From Candidatus Obscuribacterales bacterium (GTDB taxonomy: Bacteria > Cyanobacteriota > Vampirovibrionia > Obscuribacterales > Obscuribacteraceae), in the NCBI GenBank assembly GCA_965228855.1, contig CBDDIJ010000003.1, positions 704,001 through 768,000 of the forward strand: a stretch of DNA of 64,000 bases, given 5' to 3'. The notes below the pieces were generated by a model. That model was not told where the DNA came from. It ran no database searches and saw only the letters and a program-made list of their open reading frames with translations. Below, in pieces: positions 3,564 through 24,454 of this stretch. Within the stretch, counting starts at the first letter, position 1; each line of letters starts with the position of its first letter. A program made the position numbers and the translations under genes.

Positions 3564-4700
3564 CTAGAAAGCATAGTAGTCTTCGGGGATCGTCTCCGTA
3601 GGTCGCCAATCGATTTCGCCGACTTCAGCCCCTTTATATTGGATAAAAGTGTCGGCGATAAGAGCGCCGTTTGCCCGGGGACGCTTCCCCTGCGCTGCTT
3701 TCAGCCAGTCGTAAGCCTGGCGTGCCTGCATTTCGCCTGCGCCCGTTAGACCGACCATGAGCACGAGCAGATGTTTGCAGATGTTTCCCTGAAGACCCAT
3801 GCACTCGTCCAGATCCGGGGTGCAGCAGCCGTACTTGCCCTCCGGCGTCAACCAGCTGGCATACACCTTCGAGGTGGTTGTCTGGCTGCGCACAACGCCA
3901 ACCACATGCTCCTCGTCTTTGCGAACATAGAGCTTGAAGACCTCTTGCTTCAGCATCTTTAACGCTCGACCGAGTTTTCCCTGGTCAACCGTACCATGCA
4001 GTCTACTGATAAACGTGGCGAAGCTCATATCGTCATCACCGGATGTGGTGTCATGATCGGTTCGAACCAGCTCGAGGAATCCTTCCTCATCTAAAATTTT
4101 TAAACGAATACCGCTGGCAGCCAATTTCTTCGCCTTGTTGCTGGCTGCTATTTTGCCATCGCTTTTGCGCGGGCCGAAAACGGCATAGTCTAACTTCTCG
4201 TCTAACGTGTTCACGACAACACCGCCTATGTTTTCAACCATAGACTTCAGGAGTGCTTCGTCGTAGCCTCCACCACAGCAGTCGAAGCCTCCAAACAGGC
4301 AGAAGGTTTTGCCGGTTAAGTTGGCGCGCACCATCTCTCGGAACGCGCTTTCATCTAATATGGTCGGAAACGGTTTTCCTGTAGCTGTTTTTGCCTTTCG
4401 CTTGCCTGATGCAACCGTGCCTTCAGATTCAGCGCGCAGTTTTTCGACTTTCTTAATCGCCTCCTTCTTACCTTCCTCCCTTTTGTCACCGATTACCAGA
4501 TAATCCAGACCTTCATCGACGTCATGCTTCAGAATTCCGCCCCTCATCTGTGCTACCGTGGATGGTGCTCCAGGATGATATGAAGGCCAGTATGAAAAGG
4601 CGCCGAAGAATGCAAAGGTCTTACCCTTAAATACATCGTCGTTTGGTTTTACTGAGCTGATTGCTTTAGCTATCACTGTGCAAGATTTCCCGAAATTCAA
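3564..4700 (-). CDS. Tandem BRCT-domain protein with C-terminal SWIM-like zinc finger
   Basis: Two FxGKTF...GG...LDYxVxG...ILDE repeats; YGCC...C...CKH motif. Confidence 0.75.
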   Translation of the reverse strand: MNFGKSCTVIAKAISSVKPNDDVFKGKTFAFFGAFSYWPSYHPGAPSTVAQMRGGILKHDVDEGLDYLVIGDKREEGKKEAIKKVEKLRAESEGTVASGKRKAKTATGKPFPTILDESAFREMVRANLTGKTFCLFGGFDCCGGGYDEALLKSMVENIGGVVVNTLDEKLDYAVFGPRKSDGKIAASNKAKKLAASGIRLKILDEEGFLELVRTDHDTTSGDDDMSFATFISRLHGTVDQGKLGRALKMLKQEVFKLYVRKDEEHVVGVVRSQTTTSKVYASWLTPEGKYGCCTPDLDECMGLQGNICKHLLVLMVGLTGAGEMQARQAYDWLKAAQGKRPRANGALIADTFIQYKGAEVGEIDWRPTETIPEDYYAF

Positions 4701-20517: not shown

Positions 20518-20600
20518 AGGAGCAGACAGGAGTTGAACCTGTAACCCTTGCAGGCAGACGGTTTAGCAAACCGCTTCCTCGACCGTGTCGGACCTGCTCC
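20518..20600 (-). tRNA. tRNA-Ser(GCT)
   Basis: GGAGCAG/CTGCTCC acceptor, TTGCTAA loop, long V arm, GTTCAACTC. Confidence 0.85.
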
Positions 20601-20604
20601 AAAG

Positions 20605-20708
20605 TCGCATCGTCACCAGCCAATCACTAGTATTGAATCTGGTGCTTCTCAGGGAATGGTGACCATGCGGCGTCCGGTGAAGACGCCGCGGGCGAGCAGA
20701 CGATGCGA
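20605..20708 (-). ncRNA. Unassigned three-way-junction structured RNA
   Basis: 10-bp closing stem TCGCATCGTC/GACGATGCGA with internal GCGGCGTC/GACGCCGC and CCAG..CTGG hairpins. Confidence 0.5.
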
Positions 20709-20713
20709 GCTAC

Positions 20714-20822
20714 TCGCGGTCACCTATATGACGGAGTCTAAGCATTTCCAGCGCACAGGCGGAAGAGGTTTCCGCCTGACCGCGACAGGTTTGATACCAC
20801 AAATATAAATGCTGACTCGGTC
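20714..20822 (-). ncRNA. Unassigned pseudoknotted RNA
   Basis: Crossing helices 20807-20822/20730-20747 and 20779-20785/20714-20720, with nested hairpin 20756-20778. Confidence 0.5.
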
Positions 20823-20827
20823 TAAAA

Positions 20828-20902
20828 TGGCTGCACAGGCAGGGGTCGAACCTGCGACAAATCGGTTAACAGCCGATTGTTCTGCCGCTGAACTACTGTG
20901 CA
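20828..20902 (-). tRNA. tRNA-Asn(GTT)
   Basis: Cloverleaf, CTGTTAA loop, encoded CCA. Confidence 0.93.
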
Positions 20903-20905
20903 ATA

Positions 20906-20987
20906 AGGAAGCAGAGGGACTCGAACCCCCAAACCTTGACGGCCAACTGTTTTCAAGACAGCGTCCTCATCCAGCCGGGTTGCTTCC
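20906..20987 (-). tRNA. tRNA-Ser(TGA)
   Basis: GGAAGCA/TGCTTCC, CTTGAAA loop, V arm. Confidence 0.88.
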
Positions 20988-21046
20988 GAGTGATACCGAA
21001 AATGATTTCGGTATCGCCGATAGTGCTTGCGAGCACGCTCGACATA

Positions 21047-21119
21047 AGCCGTTGACAGGAGTTGAACCTGCAACCTACTGTTTACAAGACAGCAGCTCTA
21101 CCAATTGAGCCACAACGGC
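21047..21119 (-). tRNA. tRNA-Thr(TGT)
   Basis: Cloverleaf, CTTGTAA loop. Confidence 0.93.
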
Positions 21120-21120
21120 A

Positions 21121-21195
21121 TGGAACCGCATCCAGGATTCGAACCTGGGCGCAAAGGTTTAGAAAACCATCGCTCTTCCGCTGAGCTAATGCGGT
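21121..21195 (-). tRNA. tRNA-Arg(TCT)
   Basis: Cloverleaf, TTTCTAA loop, CCA. Confidence 0.9.
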
Positions 21196-21196
21196 A

Positions 21197-21290
21197 TGGT
21201 ACCAGTGGTAGGGCTCGAACCTACAACCTTGCGCTAATCGGGCGCTCAACCGAGTATAAATCGGCCGCTCTGCCATTGAGCTACACTGGT
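21197..21290 (-). tRNA. tRNA-Ile(TAT) with long variable arm
   Basis: ACCAGTG/CACTGGT, TTTATAC loop, GCGC..GCGC V arm, ACCA end. Confidence 0.85.
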
Positions 21291-21320
21291 TCGTTTGTGA
21301 ACTAATTTAAGTAGCGAAGA

Positions 21321-21392
21321 TGGAGGCAGTAGGAATCGAACCCACTTAATGCTGGTTAAAAGCCAGATGCATAGCCACTCTGCCATACCTCC
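21321..21392 (-). tRNA. tRNA-Lys(TTT)
   Basis: Cloverleaf, CTTTTAA loop. Confidence 0.88.
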
Positions 21393-21509
21393 TAGCGTTG
21401 ATTCTCATCGACGCTATGCGTTTTGAACTCATATTGGAACCTCCGATGATGGAGCATGACCGTTTTTCAACGACCATGCTCCGAGACGCAAACTTGTTTC
21501 CGAAGTAAT

Positions 21510-21584
21510 TGGGAGCACTGACGAGAATCGAACTCGCATTTGCGGAGTGAAAGTCCACCTTCCTAACCATTAGAAGACAGTGCC
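21510..21584 (-). tRNA. tRNA-Glu(TTC)
   Basis: Cloverleaf, CTTTCAC loop, CCA. Confidence 0.88.
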
Positions 21585-21615
21585 GTAGAACCGCTTTTGA
21601 AGCGGAGTTGTAATC

Positions 21616-21688
21616 AACCCTTGTCAGGACTTGAACCTGAACGCTACTGGATCGGAACCAGTTGCTCTTCCGTTTGAGCTACAAGGGC
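21616..21688 (-). tRNA. tRNA-Arg(CCG)
   Basis: Cloverleaf, TTCCGAT loop; body nearly identical to Arg(ACG) at 22568. Confidence 0.9.
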
Positions 21689-21689
21689 A

Positions 21690-21820
21690 TGGGCCGTACG
21701 AGTTGGAGATACGAGTTTTTTACATCCCCATGTAGCGGGGATGATTGGAGTTGAACCAATTAGATTTGTGTTGGAGACAAATGTTTTACCGTGTGTAAGT
21801 ATCTTCTGTTAGAGTACGGC
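21690..21820 (-). ncRNA. Scaffold RNA carrying a circularly permuted tRNA-Trp(CCA)-like domain
   Basis: GCCGTAC-TCTAACA...AACTC-GTACGGC scaffold enclosing an anticodon arm (CTCCAAC), a T arm, then the acceptor hairpin CATCCCC/GGGGATG. Confidence 0.75.
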
Positions 21821-21829
21821 GGAAATTTG

Positions 21830-21898
21830 TTCGTGCAAGTCGTTGATGCGAAGCTAAGCTCGTTCAAAGAGTGTATGCATCAACTGTCGGAGCACGAA
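21830..21898 (-). ncRNA. Minimal scaffold RNA
   Basis: TTCGTGC-TCCGACA-GTTGATGC...GCATCAAC-GACTT-GCACGAA. Confidence 0.7.
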
Positions 21899-21901
21899 AC
21901 A

Positions 21902-21988
21902 TGGTCGGCGGGGCACGGATTTGAACCTGCGAAGTCTTGAGACGCGTGGGTTACGGCCACGCTGCTTTGGCCACTTGCATACCCGCCG
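21902..21988 (-). tRNA. tRNA-Tyr(GTA) with C1-G72 pair
   Basis: CGGCGGG/CCCGCCG-ACCA, CCGTAAC loop, V arm, bulged T stem. Confidence 0.82.
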
Positions 21989-22061
21989 GTACTGTTTGCG
22001 TTCTGAATCGGGGCGATACCAGAGTGGTATCACCGTGATACCAGACTGGTGTCATCAATGA

Positions 22062-22132
22062 AGTCCCTTGCAGGAATTGCACCTGCATAAACTGATTTGC
22101 AGTCAGTCACCTTGCTATTCGGACAAAGGGAC
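22062..22132 (-). tRNA. tRNA-Cys(GCA)
   Basis: CTGCAAA loop, U73, atypical TGCAATT T loop. Confidence 0.85.
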
Positions 22133-22133
22133 G

Positions 22134-22207
22134 TGGAGCCTATCATCGGACTCGAACCGATACCCCTAGCATGGCTCGCTAGGATTCTGCCTTTATACTA
22201 GATAGGC
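22134..22207 (-). tRNA. tRNA-Gly(GCC), atypical anticodon loop
   Basis: GCCTATC/GATAGGC-TCCA; loop GAGCCAT (G32, A33). Confidence 0.8.
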
Positions 22208-22208
22208 G

Positions 22209-22283
22209 TGGTTGCCGCAGAAGGATTTGCACCTACACTTGCTCACTTATCGGGTGAGTACTCTGCTGTTAAGTTATGCGGCA
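22209..22283 (-). tRNA. tRNA-Ile(GAT), atypical
   Basis: CCGATAA loop (C33), TGCAAAT T loop, ACCA end. Confidence 0.8.
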
Positions 22284-22284
22284 C

Positions 22285-22369
22285 TGGTGGAGGCAGTAGG
22301 AATCGAACCCACGTTGGTTTTGAAACCTCTGGTTAAGAGCCAGGTGCATAGCCATTCTGCCATGCCTCC
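22285..22369 (-). tRNA. tRNA-Lys(CTT) with variable arm
   Basis: CTCTTAA loop; GGTTTCAAAACC V hairpin; paralog of Lys(TTT). Confidence 0.88.
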
Positions 22370-22371
22370 AG

Positions 22372-22522
22372 GACGAGCGACATCGAGAACGGTTTCATGT
22401 TGCACATAGAAACCTCATCGTGCAGTTAGTCAGCTCGTTTCTGTTCTTGCACCACAGATGGTTTCGTTCATAAGACAGTCCCTTAGAACCGTTTTTTGCG
22501 AACCACATCTGGTGCTCGATGT
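22372..22522 (-). ncRNA. Unassigned multi-stem, possibly pseudoknotted RNA
   Basis: ACATCGAG/CTCGATGT closing stem, long hairpin 22449-22515, hairpin 22391-22414, crossing helix 22433-22439/22372-22378. Confidence 0.5.
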
Positions 22523-22567
22523 TTTAGACGTCACCCGGCGCCTGATAGCGCCTGCGGTGCTCTTAAT

Positions 22568-22642
22568 TGGAACCCTTGTCAGGATTCGAACCTGAAGCCT
22601 ACTGGTTCGTAGCCAGTTGCTCTTCCTTTAAGCTACAAGGGC
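22568..22642 (-). tRNA. tRNA-Arg(ACG)
   Basis: Cloverleaf, CTACGAA loop, CCA. Confidence 0.92.
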
Positions 22643-22682
22643 GCATGCCTGCTTATGGTTATGACACCGCAAGTAGGCGGTC

Positions 22683-22900
22683 AACCGTGCAAGTTGAAGT
22701 TACGGATCATCGCGTTTTACCGTTGCTCGAAATCTAGCCCAGTCCGCACTTACGCGTTGTTTAAATGATGGCTGCTTAAAGCCTACATCCTGGGTTTCTG
22801 ACGACTCCTCACAATCTCATTGCCATTTGAAACGACGGTTGGCTTAGCCAACTAGCCTCCTCTCGTACTGCTTGTATGTATCTTGGGTTGGGGCACGGTC
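22683..22900 (-). ncRNA. Scaffold RNA carrying 23S rRNA sarcin-ricin loop and L11/GTPase-centre mimics
   Basis: AGTACGAGAGGA at 22869-22858; CCCAGGATGTAGGCTTTAAGCAGCCATCATTTAAACAACGCGTAAGTGCGGACTGGG at 22794-22738; closed by GACCGTGC/GCACGGTT. Confidence 0.85.
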
Positions 22901-22903
22901 GCT

Positions 22904-22973
22904 TGCTCACCATCGGAATCGAACCGATTTCTCCATCCGGCGAGATGGATTTCTGCCATTGAATTAGGCGAGC
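22904..22973 (-). tRNA. Degenerate tRNA (Gly-like body, 8-nt anticodon loop CTCGCCGG)
   Basis: Acceptor GCTCGCC/GGTGAGC, canonical T arm, irregular D and anticodon arms. Confidence 0.6.
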
Positions 22974-22977
22974 ACAT

Positions 22978-23110
22978 AAACCGTACGAGTCGCGCTTGCA
23001 GGTGGGGCTTTACATTTCGCAGCCGTGAATTCCAGTTCCGGCAAGACACCCACAGTTACGTTTGTTTATTTGTTTGTGGATTGTAAGCAATCGCTGTTGG
23101 AGTACGGTTT
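22978..23110 (-). ncRNA. Scaffold RNA with A/C-rich single strand and small junction domain
   Basis: AAACCGTAC-TCCAACA...GACTC-GTACGGTTT; internal CACAAACAAATAAACAAAC and GTGGG/CCCAC domain. Confidence 0.72.
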
Positions 23111-23114
23111 TATA

Positions 23115-23185
23115 TTGCCGCAGCAGGTCTTGCACCTGCACGTGTCGGTTTATTCAACAAACACTCTGCGTTGATTTACACGGCA
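23115..23185 (-). tRNA. Degenerate tRNA-Ile(AAT)-like
   Basis: TGCCGTG/TGCGGCA acceptor like Ile(GAT), mismatched anticodon stem, loop TGAATAA, TGCAAGA T loop. Confidence 0.55.
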
Positions 23186-23186
23186 T

Positions 23187-23261
23187 TGGTACCCGATGAA
23201 GGACTTGAACCTTCAACCCGCTCTTTGTAAGAGAGACGCTCTACCATTGAGCTAACCGGGT
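23187..23261 (-). tRNA. tRNA-Val(TAC)
   Basis: Cloverleaf, CTTACAA loop, ACCA end. Confidence 0.92.
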
Positions 23262-23262
23262 A

Positions 23263-23339
23263 TGGTGCTTAGGGTCGGGGTCGAACCAACAACGCGCAGG
23301 GCTTCAACCTGCCGCTCTACCACTTGGAGCTACCTAAGC
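23263..23339 (-). tRNA. tRNA-Phe(GAA)
   Basis: Cloverleaf, TTGAAGC loop, ACCA end. Confidence 0.92.
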
Positions 23340-23340
23340 A

Positions 23341-23417
23341 TGGTGCTTCTGGAAGGAGTCGAACCTTCAGACTTCTGTTTTTGAAACAGATGCATGTACC
23401 GATTCTGCTACAGAAGC
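23341..23417 (-). tRNA. tRNA-Leu(CAA), short variable loop
   Basis: TTCAAAA loop, A73, variable region only AGTCT. Confidence 0.88.
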
Positions 23418-23420
23418 ATG

Positions 23421-23540
23421 TGGCCGTACGAGTCGAGGTGCAGTGTAGTTCACGGAGGAATCGAACCTCCAACTTCTGATTAATAGTCAGATACTCTTAC
23501 CGTTTGAGTTAGTGTGTATGCACGTCTGTGTGAGTACGGC
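23421..23540 (-). ncRNA. Scaffold RNA carrying a tRNA-Asn(ATT)-like D/anticodon/T core
   Basis: GCCGTAC-TCACACA-GACGTGCA...TGCACCTC-GACTC-GTACGGC enclosing perfect D, anticodon (CTATTAA) and T arms. Confidence 0.78.
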
Positions 23541-23547
23541 GCAGTTA

Positions 23548-23620
23548 TGGAGACGATCGGAGTTGAACCGACAACCTTCTCGTTGCAGGCGAGGTGCTCT
23601 ACCAGTTGAGCTAAGTCCCC
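23548..23620 (-). tRNA. tRNA-Ala(TGC)
   Basis: G3-U70 pair, CCTGCAA loop (C33). Confidence 0.9.
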
Positions 23621-23624
23621 AGGT

Positions 23625-23728
23625 GGAGCCGATCTTGGCGTTTCGAGATTGCGATGAAGACCCTCCGAGTTTGCGCCGGCAATGCGCTCGATCTTCGCAG
23701 AGAAAAAATCGTCGAAACAATCGGCTCC
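23625..23728 (-). ncRNA. Unassigned rod-shaped RNA with pyrimidine-rich internal loop
   Basis: GGAGCCGAT/ATCGGCTCC, GTTTCGA/TCGAAAC, TTTTTTCTC bulge, apical hairpin. Confidence 0.5.
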
Positions 23729-23734
23729 TGGTAC

Positions 23735-23810
23735 TGGTCGCAGAGACCGGATTCGAACCGGTAATTTACAGGTTATGAGCCTGCCGTGTTAACCGTTACA
23801 CTACTCTGCT
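23735..23810 (-). tRNA. tRNA-Met(CAT) with A1xG72 mismatch
   Basis: CTCATAA loop, ACCA end; Met versus fMet versus Ile2 not resolved. Confidence 0.88.
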
Positions 23811-23823
23811 AAATTTGAACATT

Positions 23824-23897
23824 TGCTTCTGGAAGGATTCGAACCTTCAGACCTCCGGGTTTAAGTCGGATGCATGTGCCGATTCTGCTACAGAAGC
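23824..23897 (-). tRNA. tRNA-Leu(TAA), short variable loop
   Basis: CTTAAAC loop; paralog of Leu(CAA). Confidence 0.88.
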
Positions 23898-23898
23898 G

Positions 23899-23973
23899 TG
23901 GCGCATCCCCTAGGATTTGAACCCAGATCGAACGAGTTTGGAGCTCGTCATGTTGCCGTTACACCAGGGATAC
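23899..23973 (-). tRNA. tRNA-Trp(CCA)
   Basis: Cloverleaf, CTCCAAA loop, GCCA end. Confidence 0.92.
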
Positions 23974-23976
23974 GGG

Positions 23977-24136
23977 TTGAGTGAGTTAAGCACGAGCCTT
24001 CGGTCTGGGTTATGTGAACTGCAACTGAATCTGATTTTCAGCTGCTGGAACCATTTGCTATCACGATTCCGTCGGCTCCGTGTTGGGTCACGACGCCTGC
24101 TCGATCACGAACCAAAACTCGTGCTCAACCACTCGA
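23977..24136 (-). ncRNA. Unassigned ~160-nt structured RNA at the head of the array
   Basis: Long closing helix GAGT-GGTTGAGCACGAG / CTCGTGCTTAACT-C-ACTC with internal hairpins. Confidence 0.5.
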
Positions 24137-24273
24137 ATGTTTTTTTGCGGATTCAATTTTCAGTGTGCGATTCGTCGAGGAGTCACGCAAGAGCGCAGAG
24201 AAACAGGCCTGTTCACTACTGCGAAGGCGCTTCAAGACTATTTTTTTGTTCGCGAAAATCCAGAACTAATAAC

Positions 24274-24303
24274 AAAAAAGCCTGGGCTTTTCGACCCAGG
24301 CTT
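24274..24303 (-). terminator. Intrinsic terminator upstream of the tRNA array (attenuator)
   Basis: AAGCCTGGG-TCGAAAAG-CCCAGGC followed by TTTTTT on the minus strand. Confidence 0.8.
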
Positions 24304-24325: not shown

Positions 24326-24454
24326 TCAGATCACACCTGGGCTATATTTATTCGTCGCGCCTGCTGTCCACAGTTCGCGACCGAGTATCTCGGCCGGTTT
24401 CCCGACGGACATGCGATTCTCGCAACTTAAATGTCTATATGATCTAAACGACAT
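24326..24454 (-). CDS. Putative 42-aa leader peptide MSFRSYRHLSCENRMSVGKPAEILGRELWTAGATNKYSPGVI
   Basis: GGAG SD 9 nt upstream; last codons contain the antiterminator strand GCCCAGG; stop 22 nt before the terminator. Confidence 0.6.
   Translation of the reverse strand: MSFRSYRHLSCENRMSVGKPAEILGRELWTAGATNKYSPGVI

Follow-up and report, generated by a model that had tools for sequence, protein, structure and literature searches.

An Obscuribacterales tRNA array with Y-RNA-like scaffold RNAs that carry tRNA- and 23S rRNA-like inserts and very probably partner a divergent Ro60

YrlA (RF02553), the RNA partner of Rsr/Ro60, consists of a terminal stem module and a variable effector module and is encoded on the same strand beside the Ro60 gene, with a tRNA-like domain in the order T-acceptor-D, as far as the available part of PMC4201824 describes it. 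The Ro60 of Thermus phage phiLo with its RNAs Yrl1 and Yrl2 (PDB 9KOP, 9L5Y) is phage-borne and has stem-bulge-stem RNAs upstream, according to the accessible portion of PMC12135203. Other described systems that come close are the long co-oriented tRNA arrays (L-arrays) such as the Anabaena trn operon, so presented in the available parts of PMC8421152 and PMC10272220, and the bacterial ubiquitin-like operons (Bil, Bub), which combine a ubiquitin-like protein (Ubl) ending in glycine with a ThiF-type E1 and a JAB peptidase. The locus compared with them here lies in a window of 64,000 nucleotides from Candidatus Obscuribacterales bacterium (GenBank assembly GCA_965228855.1, contig CBDDIJ010000003.1, positions 704,001 to 768,000), where five elements, e1 to e5, share one RNA scaffold and carry differing tRNA-like, 23S rRNA-like and other inserts within a long tRNA gene array. 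Judged from sequence and predicted structure, they are very probably Y-RNA-like partners of a divergent Ro60.

The minus strand carries all five elements, at the places where a preliminary description of this DNA had recognised their shared termini, with stem limits slightly adjusted. The insert of e5 (23423..23540) is a tRNA core with D, anticodon and T arms and the free acceptor end missing, as seen in the fold and in an Rfam tRNA match of 49.4 bits (model 5-66), while the fold of e4 (22978..23110) gives an A/C-rich strand and a branched hairpin. The largest, e3 (22682..22901), joins a sarcin-ricin loop (SRL; 22869-22858) to a mimic of 23S helix 42-44, the GTPase-associated centre (22816-22717), with an Rfam large-subunit rRNA match of 52.6 bits. 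The minimal member e2 (21830..21898) folds over 69 nt with a small hairpin, and e1 (21693..21820) holds a tRNA-like insert in circular permutation, opened at the D arm and made up of anticodon arm, T arm and closed acceptor hairpin, recognised from its fold and a weak Rfam tRNA match of 18.4 bits. The scaffold itself is a lower stem of 7-9 bp, an internal loop with strands of 7 nt and 5 nt, and an upper stem that closes on C-G and is followed by N-UACA. The 7x5 loop and the UACA behind the upper stem are present in 5/5 elements, and the upper stem of e3 is imperfect, which corrects the preliminary description.

A pattern made of both termini matched five times in the whole genome (8,218,057 bases, both strands), and these matches are e1-e5; the chance expectation from 2000 Markov resamplings of the array had a mean of 0.0005 and a maximum of 1. 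Other searches were less complete, since a structural descriptor gave eight matches in the source genome of which five were true (e3 was missed) and three probably chance, and a weight-matrix scan missed e5. Across 40 aligned members from the window and from relatives, 86.3% of 671 cells are paired and both-side changes occur at 15/17 pairs, as against 0/500 shuffles as good and 22-43% paired in slid controls, a result favoured by the fact that the tested structure was derived from the same 40 sequences. The lower-stem covariation and the 7x5 internal loop of the preliminary description are thus borne out.

The ends of each RNA pair into a stem around a large internal domain, as in a Y RNA. 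A comparison with the Rfam Y RNA and YrlA models, already proposed with the original sighting, reached no cut-off: an Rfam search of e1-e5 found a Y RNA match at none of them, and the YrlA model scored at best 35 bits at or near any family member versus its gathering cut-off of 69 bits. The T-acceptor-D order is present in none of the five window RNAs, and turns up as a likeness to YrlA in 42/146 of the wider scaffold family, where it is the commonest insert. Unlike YrlA, the scaffold RNAs are without the GNCGAAN0-1G motif near the 5' end (0/5 window elements, 2/146 scaffolds of related loci; motif from the available part of PMC4201824), in agreement with the earlier statement that they differ from the known Ro60 site. 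They differ from YrlA further in inserts that include tRNA cores, other permutations and 23S rRNA mimics, in occurring up to six per locus, and in clustering inside tRNA arrays far from the gene.

The likely protein partner came to light through a sixth scaffold of 66 nt at C3:1378454, found by the weight-matrix scan, which lies about 125 nt upstream of an unannotated gene for a 525-aa protein, P0002, with 194 nt given as its distance from the start codon, and about 650 kb from e1-e5. The model of P0002 (pLDDT, the predicted local distance difference score, 88.8) is a helical-repeat ring with a C-terminal vWA domain, the full-length architecture of Ro60, and Foldseek places a Ro60 at each of ranks 1-11 (E 7e-11 to 2e-9, query TM 0.54-0.61 over 483-519 columns). 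The phiLo protein is the best fold match, although at 17% identity, and the phiLo RNAs use a CGAA motif and come with no mention of an rRNA mimic or a Ubl module in the available part of PMC12135203. A profile of the 91-sequence P0002 family matches phage Ro60 (E 1.7e-4) and human RO60 (E 4.5e-4), and PF25045 vWA_Ro60 is found in 34/91 members. Searches of the genome with PF05731 and PF11443 were empty, a PF11443 control also gave no match, and these searches would have wrongly excluded a Ro60. P0002 is likely to be a divergent Ro60 and the partner of the scaffold RNAs. A common protein on the shared scaffold had been anticipated, and this part of the preliminary description has probably found its object; the absence of Ro60 holds for the window, yet a divergent Ro60 gene exists outside it. 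With a sixth scaffold upstream of that gene, e1-e5 are Y-RNA-like rather than an unrelated class.

Scaffolds and P0002-type genes keep company well beyond this genome. A scaffold lies 80-1102 nt upstream on the same strand in 13/15 gene loci of relatives. A set of 99 loci (19 viral and 80 metagenomic, the latter being the best 80 of 228) gave 146 descriptor hits on the gene strand, a few of which overlap or nest, versus 3 on the opposite strand, with 69/99 loci positive, and an upstream scaffold was present in 57/76 loci having at least 600 nt of upstream sequence. Among 31 further, mostly cyanobacterial loci, 26/31 have scaffolds and opposite-strand hits number 0. A relative with at least 35% identity is encoded in 13/19 viral loci, and a 595-kb phage carries six scaffolds. 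Same-strand placement near the Ro60 gene thus holds for the family, with the sixth scaffold adjacent and the window copies distant, and matches the arrangement reported for Y RNA genes in the available part of PMC4201824. P0002-type genes occur in 11/41 genomes, among them each of the 8 whose scaffold cluster was inspected, and in 34/301 genomes of the phylum; the five TROVE-positive genomes (5/41) include none of these 11 and are not the ones that have the arrays. The branch holds 1717 proteins among 8000 scored candidates and extends to phages.

The both-termini pattern matched 11/41 genomes. Matches in G013, G016 and G020, and a single match in G005 and in G010, resembled background and were set aside; a reversed-pattern control gave 0-2 matches per strand per genome. 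Scaffold clusters sit in tRNA arrays in 7/7 inspected loci of relatives, in the same slots with changing inserts, and one pair lies outside an array. A strict 5'-half scan of 185,579 species genomes returned 17 stretches, 14 of them in such arrays, of which 12 are titled Candidatus Obscuribacterales or lower and 2 come from one contig titled Proteobacteria; the other three (L043, L045, L055), with neither a tRNA nor the 3' half in the vicinity, were dropped as chance hits. A viral pattern scan yielded one match (L023), within coding sequence and taken as chance, and a repeat scan none, the strict pattern being too narrow, and the matches from a plasmid DNA search were all short, with coverage of the query no higher than 6%.

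The inserts are where the family varies. The anticodon loop of e5 is not constant across eight orthologous arrays and that of the e1 type likewise varies among relatives, so the amino-acid labels of these inserts are incidental: what had been called a tRNA-Asn core and a permuted tRNA-Trp are tRNA-like indeed, with Asn and Trp identities that are not conserved. The reading of e4 as an mRNA mimic is unsupported, since its insert matched nothing in Rfam, the host rRNA operon or tmRNA. A cyanobacterial insert class resembling e4 recurs (L196:1339, L184, L185, L169, L171 and others), with an A/C-rich strand, two hairpins and a possible pseudoknot, and it too has no match to host rRNA or tmRNA. By simple and rough patterns the 146 scaffold hits divide into 42 inserts of YrlA order, 17 tRNA cores, 29 with a T arm only, 20 short, 37 other, several of which look tRNA-like, and 1 SRL. 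ARAGORN calls tRNA-core inserts tRNA genes in L185, L192, L193, L200 and L202, some with stop or pyrrolysine anticodons, and such annotations in these loci may be Y RNA inserts. Very short hairpins keeping just the lower stem of the scaffold stand directly before a full member at L031:1596-1626 and in L051 near 3969-3990.

The 23S rRNA-like inserts are the most telling, and here the SRL with GTPase centre proposed for e3 is upheld (the Rfam match covers model positions 1071-1170). Identity of e3 to host 23S is 79% across 62 nt. The SRL plus helix 42-44 insert is known from 11 sequences in total, one of them truncated; the 10 complete copies, several of which are close kin, keep 140/140 pairs (14 pairs x 10) with 25 both-side changes relative to host 23S, to which e3 contributes 14/14 tested pairs and 0 both-side changes. 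A profile of the seven members from outside Obscuribacterales matches the genome only at the host 23S (E 1.5e-5) and at e3 (E 1.2e-4). The order, SRL then helix 42-44, is maintained from Obscuribacterales to cyanobacteria. Since the two segments are 1617 nt apart in the host rRNA operon and in the reverse order, e3 as an rRNA pseudogene fragment was rejected. A second 23S class, matching helix 69-71, is found at 7 loci including a phage (E 3.7e-7), with an upstream segment weakly matched (E 0.029); the loci are L092:3471-3797, L182, L183, L184, L190, L194 and L107, and the insert of the phage copy measures 288 nt.

The array that hosts e1-e5 (about 23 genes; 20518..23973, minus strand) comprises 21 tRNA genes called by ARAGORN and two found by Rfam (22212-22283, 20907-20987), and syntenic arrays exist in relatives. 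Upstream of it, on the same strand, lie an intrinsic terminator-like hairpin with a competing antiterminator fold (24274..24303), from a terminator scan and alternative folds, and a leader open reading frame of 42 codons (MSFRS...PGVI; 24326..24454) whose end overlaps the predicted antiterminator strand 24341-24336. A leader reading frame ending over an antiterminator strand that competes with a terminator was found in 10/10 arrays examined, and the region is predicted to be a ribosome-sensing attenuator. The Anabaena array differs in its control by the TrcR repressor, in the part of PMC8421152 available, where Y RNA, Ro60 and TROVE also have 0 occurrences; a closer link to L-arrays is a plasmid of the cyanobacterium Kovacikia (L180) with a Ro60 gene and scaffolds directly behind a 33-tRNA array. 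A repressor-operator reading of a conserved leader repeat was set aside, the repeat encoding conserved F-R-S codons and having one other place in the genome, and a promoter scan upstream of the array found no site. In RNA libraries of three studies there are contigs over e3 or e2, at depth 2-3; the stretches left uncovered in RNA runs count as no evidence either way.

Within the array a degenerate tRNA-like element lies just upstream of e4 (23110-23186, minus strand) and also in L026, L028 and L041. Three array tRNAs have odd anticodons (23187-23261, 23547-23621, 22903-22974, minus strand), ARAGORN giving Cys where relatives have Val or Ala, with one unassigned. Strongly folding spacers on this strand (23622-23734, 23974-24140, 22370-22567, 20601-20827, 21393-21509) have no scaffold or Rfam match. 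At C3:1529761-1530653 another small cluster of tRNA genes (Gln, Gln, Leu, His, Asp) supplies types that the main array lacks.

Clustering of 934 open reading frames neighbouring the Ro60 loci gave a recurring order of Ubl, RNAs, Ro60, a 270-320-aa protein with an OB fold and a conserved cysteine (the OB/cysteine protein), JAB and ThiF-type E1. In the 58 loci whose downstream sequence reaches 2.5 kb or more, the OB/cysteine protein occurs in 39, the E1 in 35, the Ubl in 33 and the JAB in 24. The E1 matches PF00899 (ThiF-type) and the JAB peptidase PF14464, as in a conjugation operon, and the C-terminal Gly of the Ubl is invariant (36/36). The OB/cysteine protein is in the same 11/41 genomes as the Ro60 gene and its Cys291, which follows a four-strand sheet, is invariant. 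None of the searches put a name to the C-terminal alpha/beta domain that holds this residue; we infer an E2 role for the protein. Atlas searches gave no named family for it or for the Ubl. The source genome has a Ubl, OB/cysteine protein and ThiF E1 operon at C3:1365430-1367281 (L211:5431-7282). As a difference from these loci, the available part of the Bub preprint makes no mention of Ro60, TROVE or noncoding RNA (0 occurrences). An RNA 2'-phosphotransferase neighbours three Ro60 loci, and RtcB is not among their common neighbours; two RtcB genes of the source genome (L001, L002) adjoin neither the array nor the Ro60 gene.

Anticodon nucleases and rRNA-cleaving toxins attack the surfaces that the inserts copy. 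On balance, and by no great measure, we hold it probable that the scaffold RNAs are Y RNAs of the divergent Ro60 whose inserts serve as baits, drawing proteins that target tRNA or the ribosome when translation is attacked; a bait function is favoured because the inserts are attacked surfaces, because their anticodons differ, and because the system is found in huge phages and in linkage with a conjugation module. A decoy or surveillance role would fit the inserts and the gene context. Ribosome stalling in the leader reading frame would allow read-through into the array, much as translation inhibitors induce the Anabaena array (PMC8421152, PMC10272220, in the parts available), where the array tRNAs have already been suggested to sponge toxin RNases (PMC8421152). 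tRNA processing would then release each scaffold RNA, and Ro60 would, with high confidence, bind its stem and 7x5 loop. Set against its rivals, the remainder is a tentative proposal held at less than even confidence: the insert would capture anticodon, SRL or helix-69/70 nucleases, or factors for which these are binding sites, and the linked ubiquitin-like system would titrate or tag the catch. Possible but doubtful is its fullest form, a bait-and-tag system of bacteria and huge phages, in which Ro60 would display swappable baits (anticodon arms, tRNA elbow, SRL with GTPase centre, helix 69-71) and whatever bites would be labelled by the linked E1/cysteine/JAB machinery.

A number of observations weigh against the bait proposal or parts of it. 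Concerning the Ro60 assignment, PF05731 TROVE had 0 matches in the source genome and is not among the families matching the 91 members, and the canonical Ro60 motif is missing from the scaffolds at the counts given above. Co-occurrence is incomplete, in counts where kin are not independent: 2/15, 30/99 and 5/31 gene loci, many of them short, are without a scaffold, 19/76 loci with at least 600 nt upstream had no upstream one, and a scaffold was found in 0/6 loci at or below 28% identity. The RNA-library contigs cover just e3 and e2, without ends or strand, and possibly derive from DNA. At each locus two or three short inserts have no recognisable model, and a ribotoxin or immunity gene is not among the common neighbours of Ro60 loci. 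As to the tagging machinery, the Ubl-OB-E1 genes of the source genome are about 11 kb from its Ro60 gene, a JAB was not found there with one query, no solved structure matches the Ubl significantly (ubiquitin D comes up at E 0.3-0.5), and fold searches with the whole model of the OB/cysteine protein filled up with OB folds, of the S1/cold-shock-like kind, and gave no E2. The established role of a Y RNA, moreover, is tethering to PNPase (PMC4201824; bioRxiv 312249; PMC12135203, in the parts available).

That role is the starting point of a rather improbable, if serious, alternative, in which Y RNAs of the divergent Ro60 would act as tethers or gates of RNA quality control, on the pattern of the Deinococcus Ro60-Y RNA-PNPase complex, their inserts recruiting or excluding nucleases and ligases so that damaged tRNA or rRNA is degraded or repaired. 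The two RtcB genes, the 2'-phosphotransferase near three loci and the S1/cold-shock-like OB folds of the linked protein would suit it, but it leaves the joined and compensatorily kept factor-binding 23S surfaces unexplained, and the common neighbours are Ubl, E1 and JAB rather than RtcB. Those surfaces could instead address the host's own factors, for SRL and helix 43/44 together are the docking site of translational GTPases. Ro60-bound mimics might thus regulate translation under stress or phage infection, the SRL with helix 42-44 holding EF-G, EF-Tu or L11, helix 69-71 holding recycling or rescue factors, and tRNA cores holding synthetases or modification enzymes. We judge this unlikely: the fusion of SRL and helix 43/44 in all 10 complete copies and the predicted attenuator speak for it, but a conflict role accords better with anticodon loops that vary and with the presence of a conjugation module, and tight binding of the factors requires ribosomal proteins and further rRNA.

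Less weight still falls on two readings that would empty the inserts or the RNAs of meaning. The scaffold alone could matter, say by regulating Ro60 or by serving in processing or stability, with the inserts being captured tRNA and rRNA fragments that drift without function. Short inserts in 20/146 hits, the many unassigned ones and the unconserved anticodons agree with drift, but the rRNA-like inserts keep all tested pairs with their 25 both-side changes and hold the SRL-helix 42-44 order from Obscuribacterales to cyanobacteria, so that this very unlikely reading is, for the rRNA class, already largely refuted. Scarcely credible is a DNA-level repeat or recombination site without RNA product: in its favour the RNA-library contigs gave no discrete transcript, but the covariation tolerates G-U, the scaffolds are strictly co-oriented with the Ro60 gene, and the inserts are tRNA- and rRNA-like.

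Burroughs, Iyer and Aravind (2011-2012) reportedly predicted neighbourhoods in which Ubl, E1 and JAB stand together with Ro and Y RNA, perhaps the present one among them, so that the operon may, on its protein side, already have been outlined. Literature searches, whose scope did not extend to the papers of the Aravind group, found no description of the scaffold motif or of rRNA-mimic Y RNAs, and words for the scaffold and the SRL have 0 occurrences in the accessible content, mostly tables, of six supplements of PMC4201824. Overall this is a widespread Y RNA variant of the Ro60-Y RNA system, and what is new in it is the rRNA-mimic inserts and the multi-member panels. The effector bound by the variable domain of bacterial Y RNAs is called unknown in the available part of bioRxiv 312249; one scaffold with many inserts, among them stand-alone mimics of two 23S functional centres, means that insert-swap pull-downs would test binding by the variable domain directly. 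Y RNA inserts are likely to account for some of the apparent tRNA genes of arrays, and a branch of Ro60 overlooked by Pfam TROVE, as its RNAs were by Rfam, is linked to ubiquitin-like conjugation.

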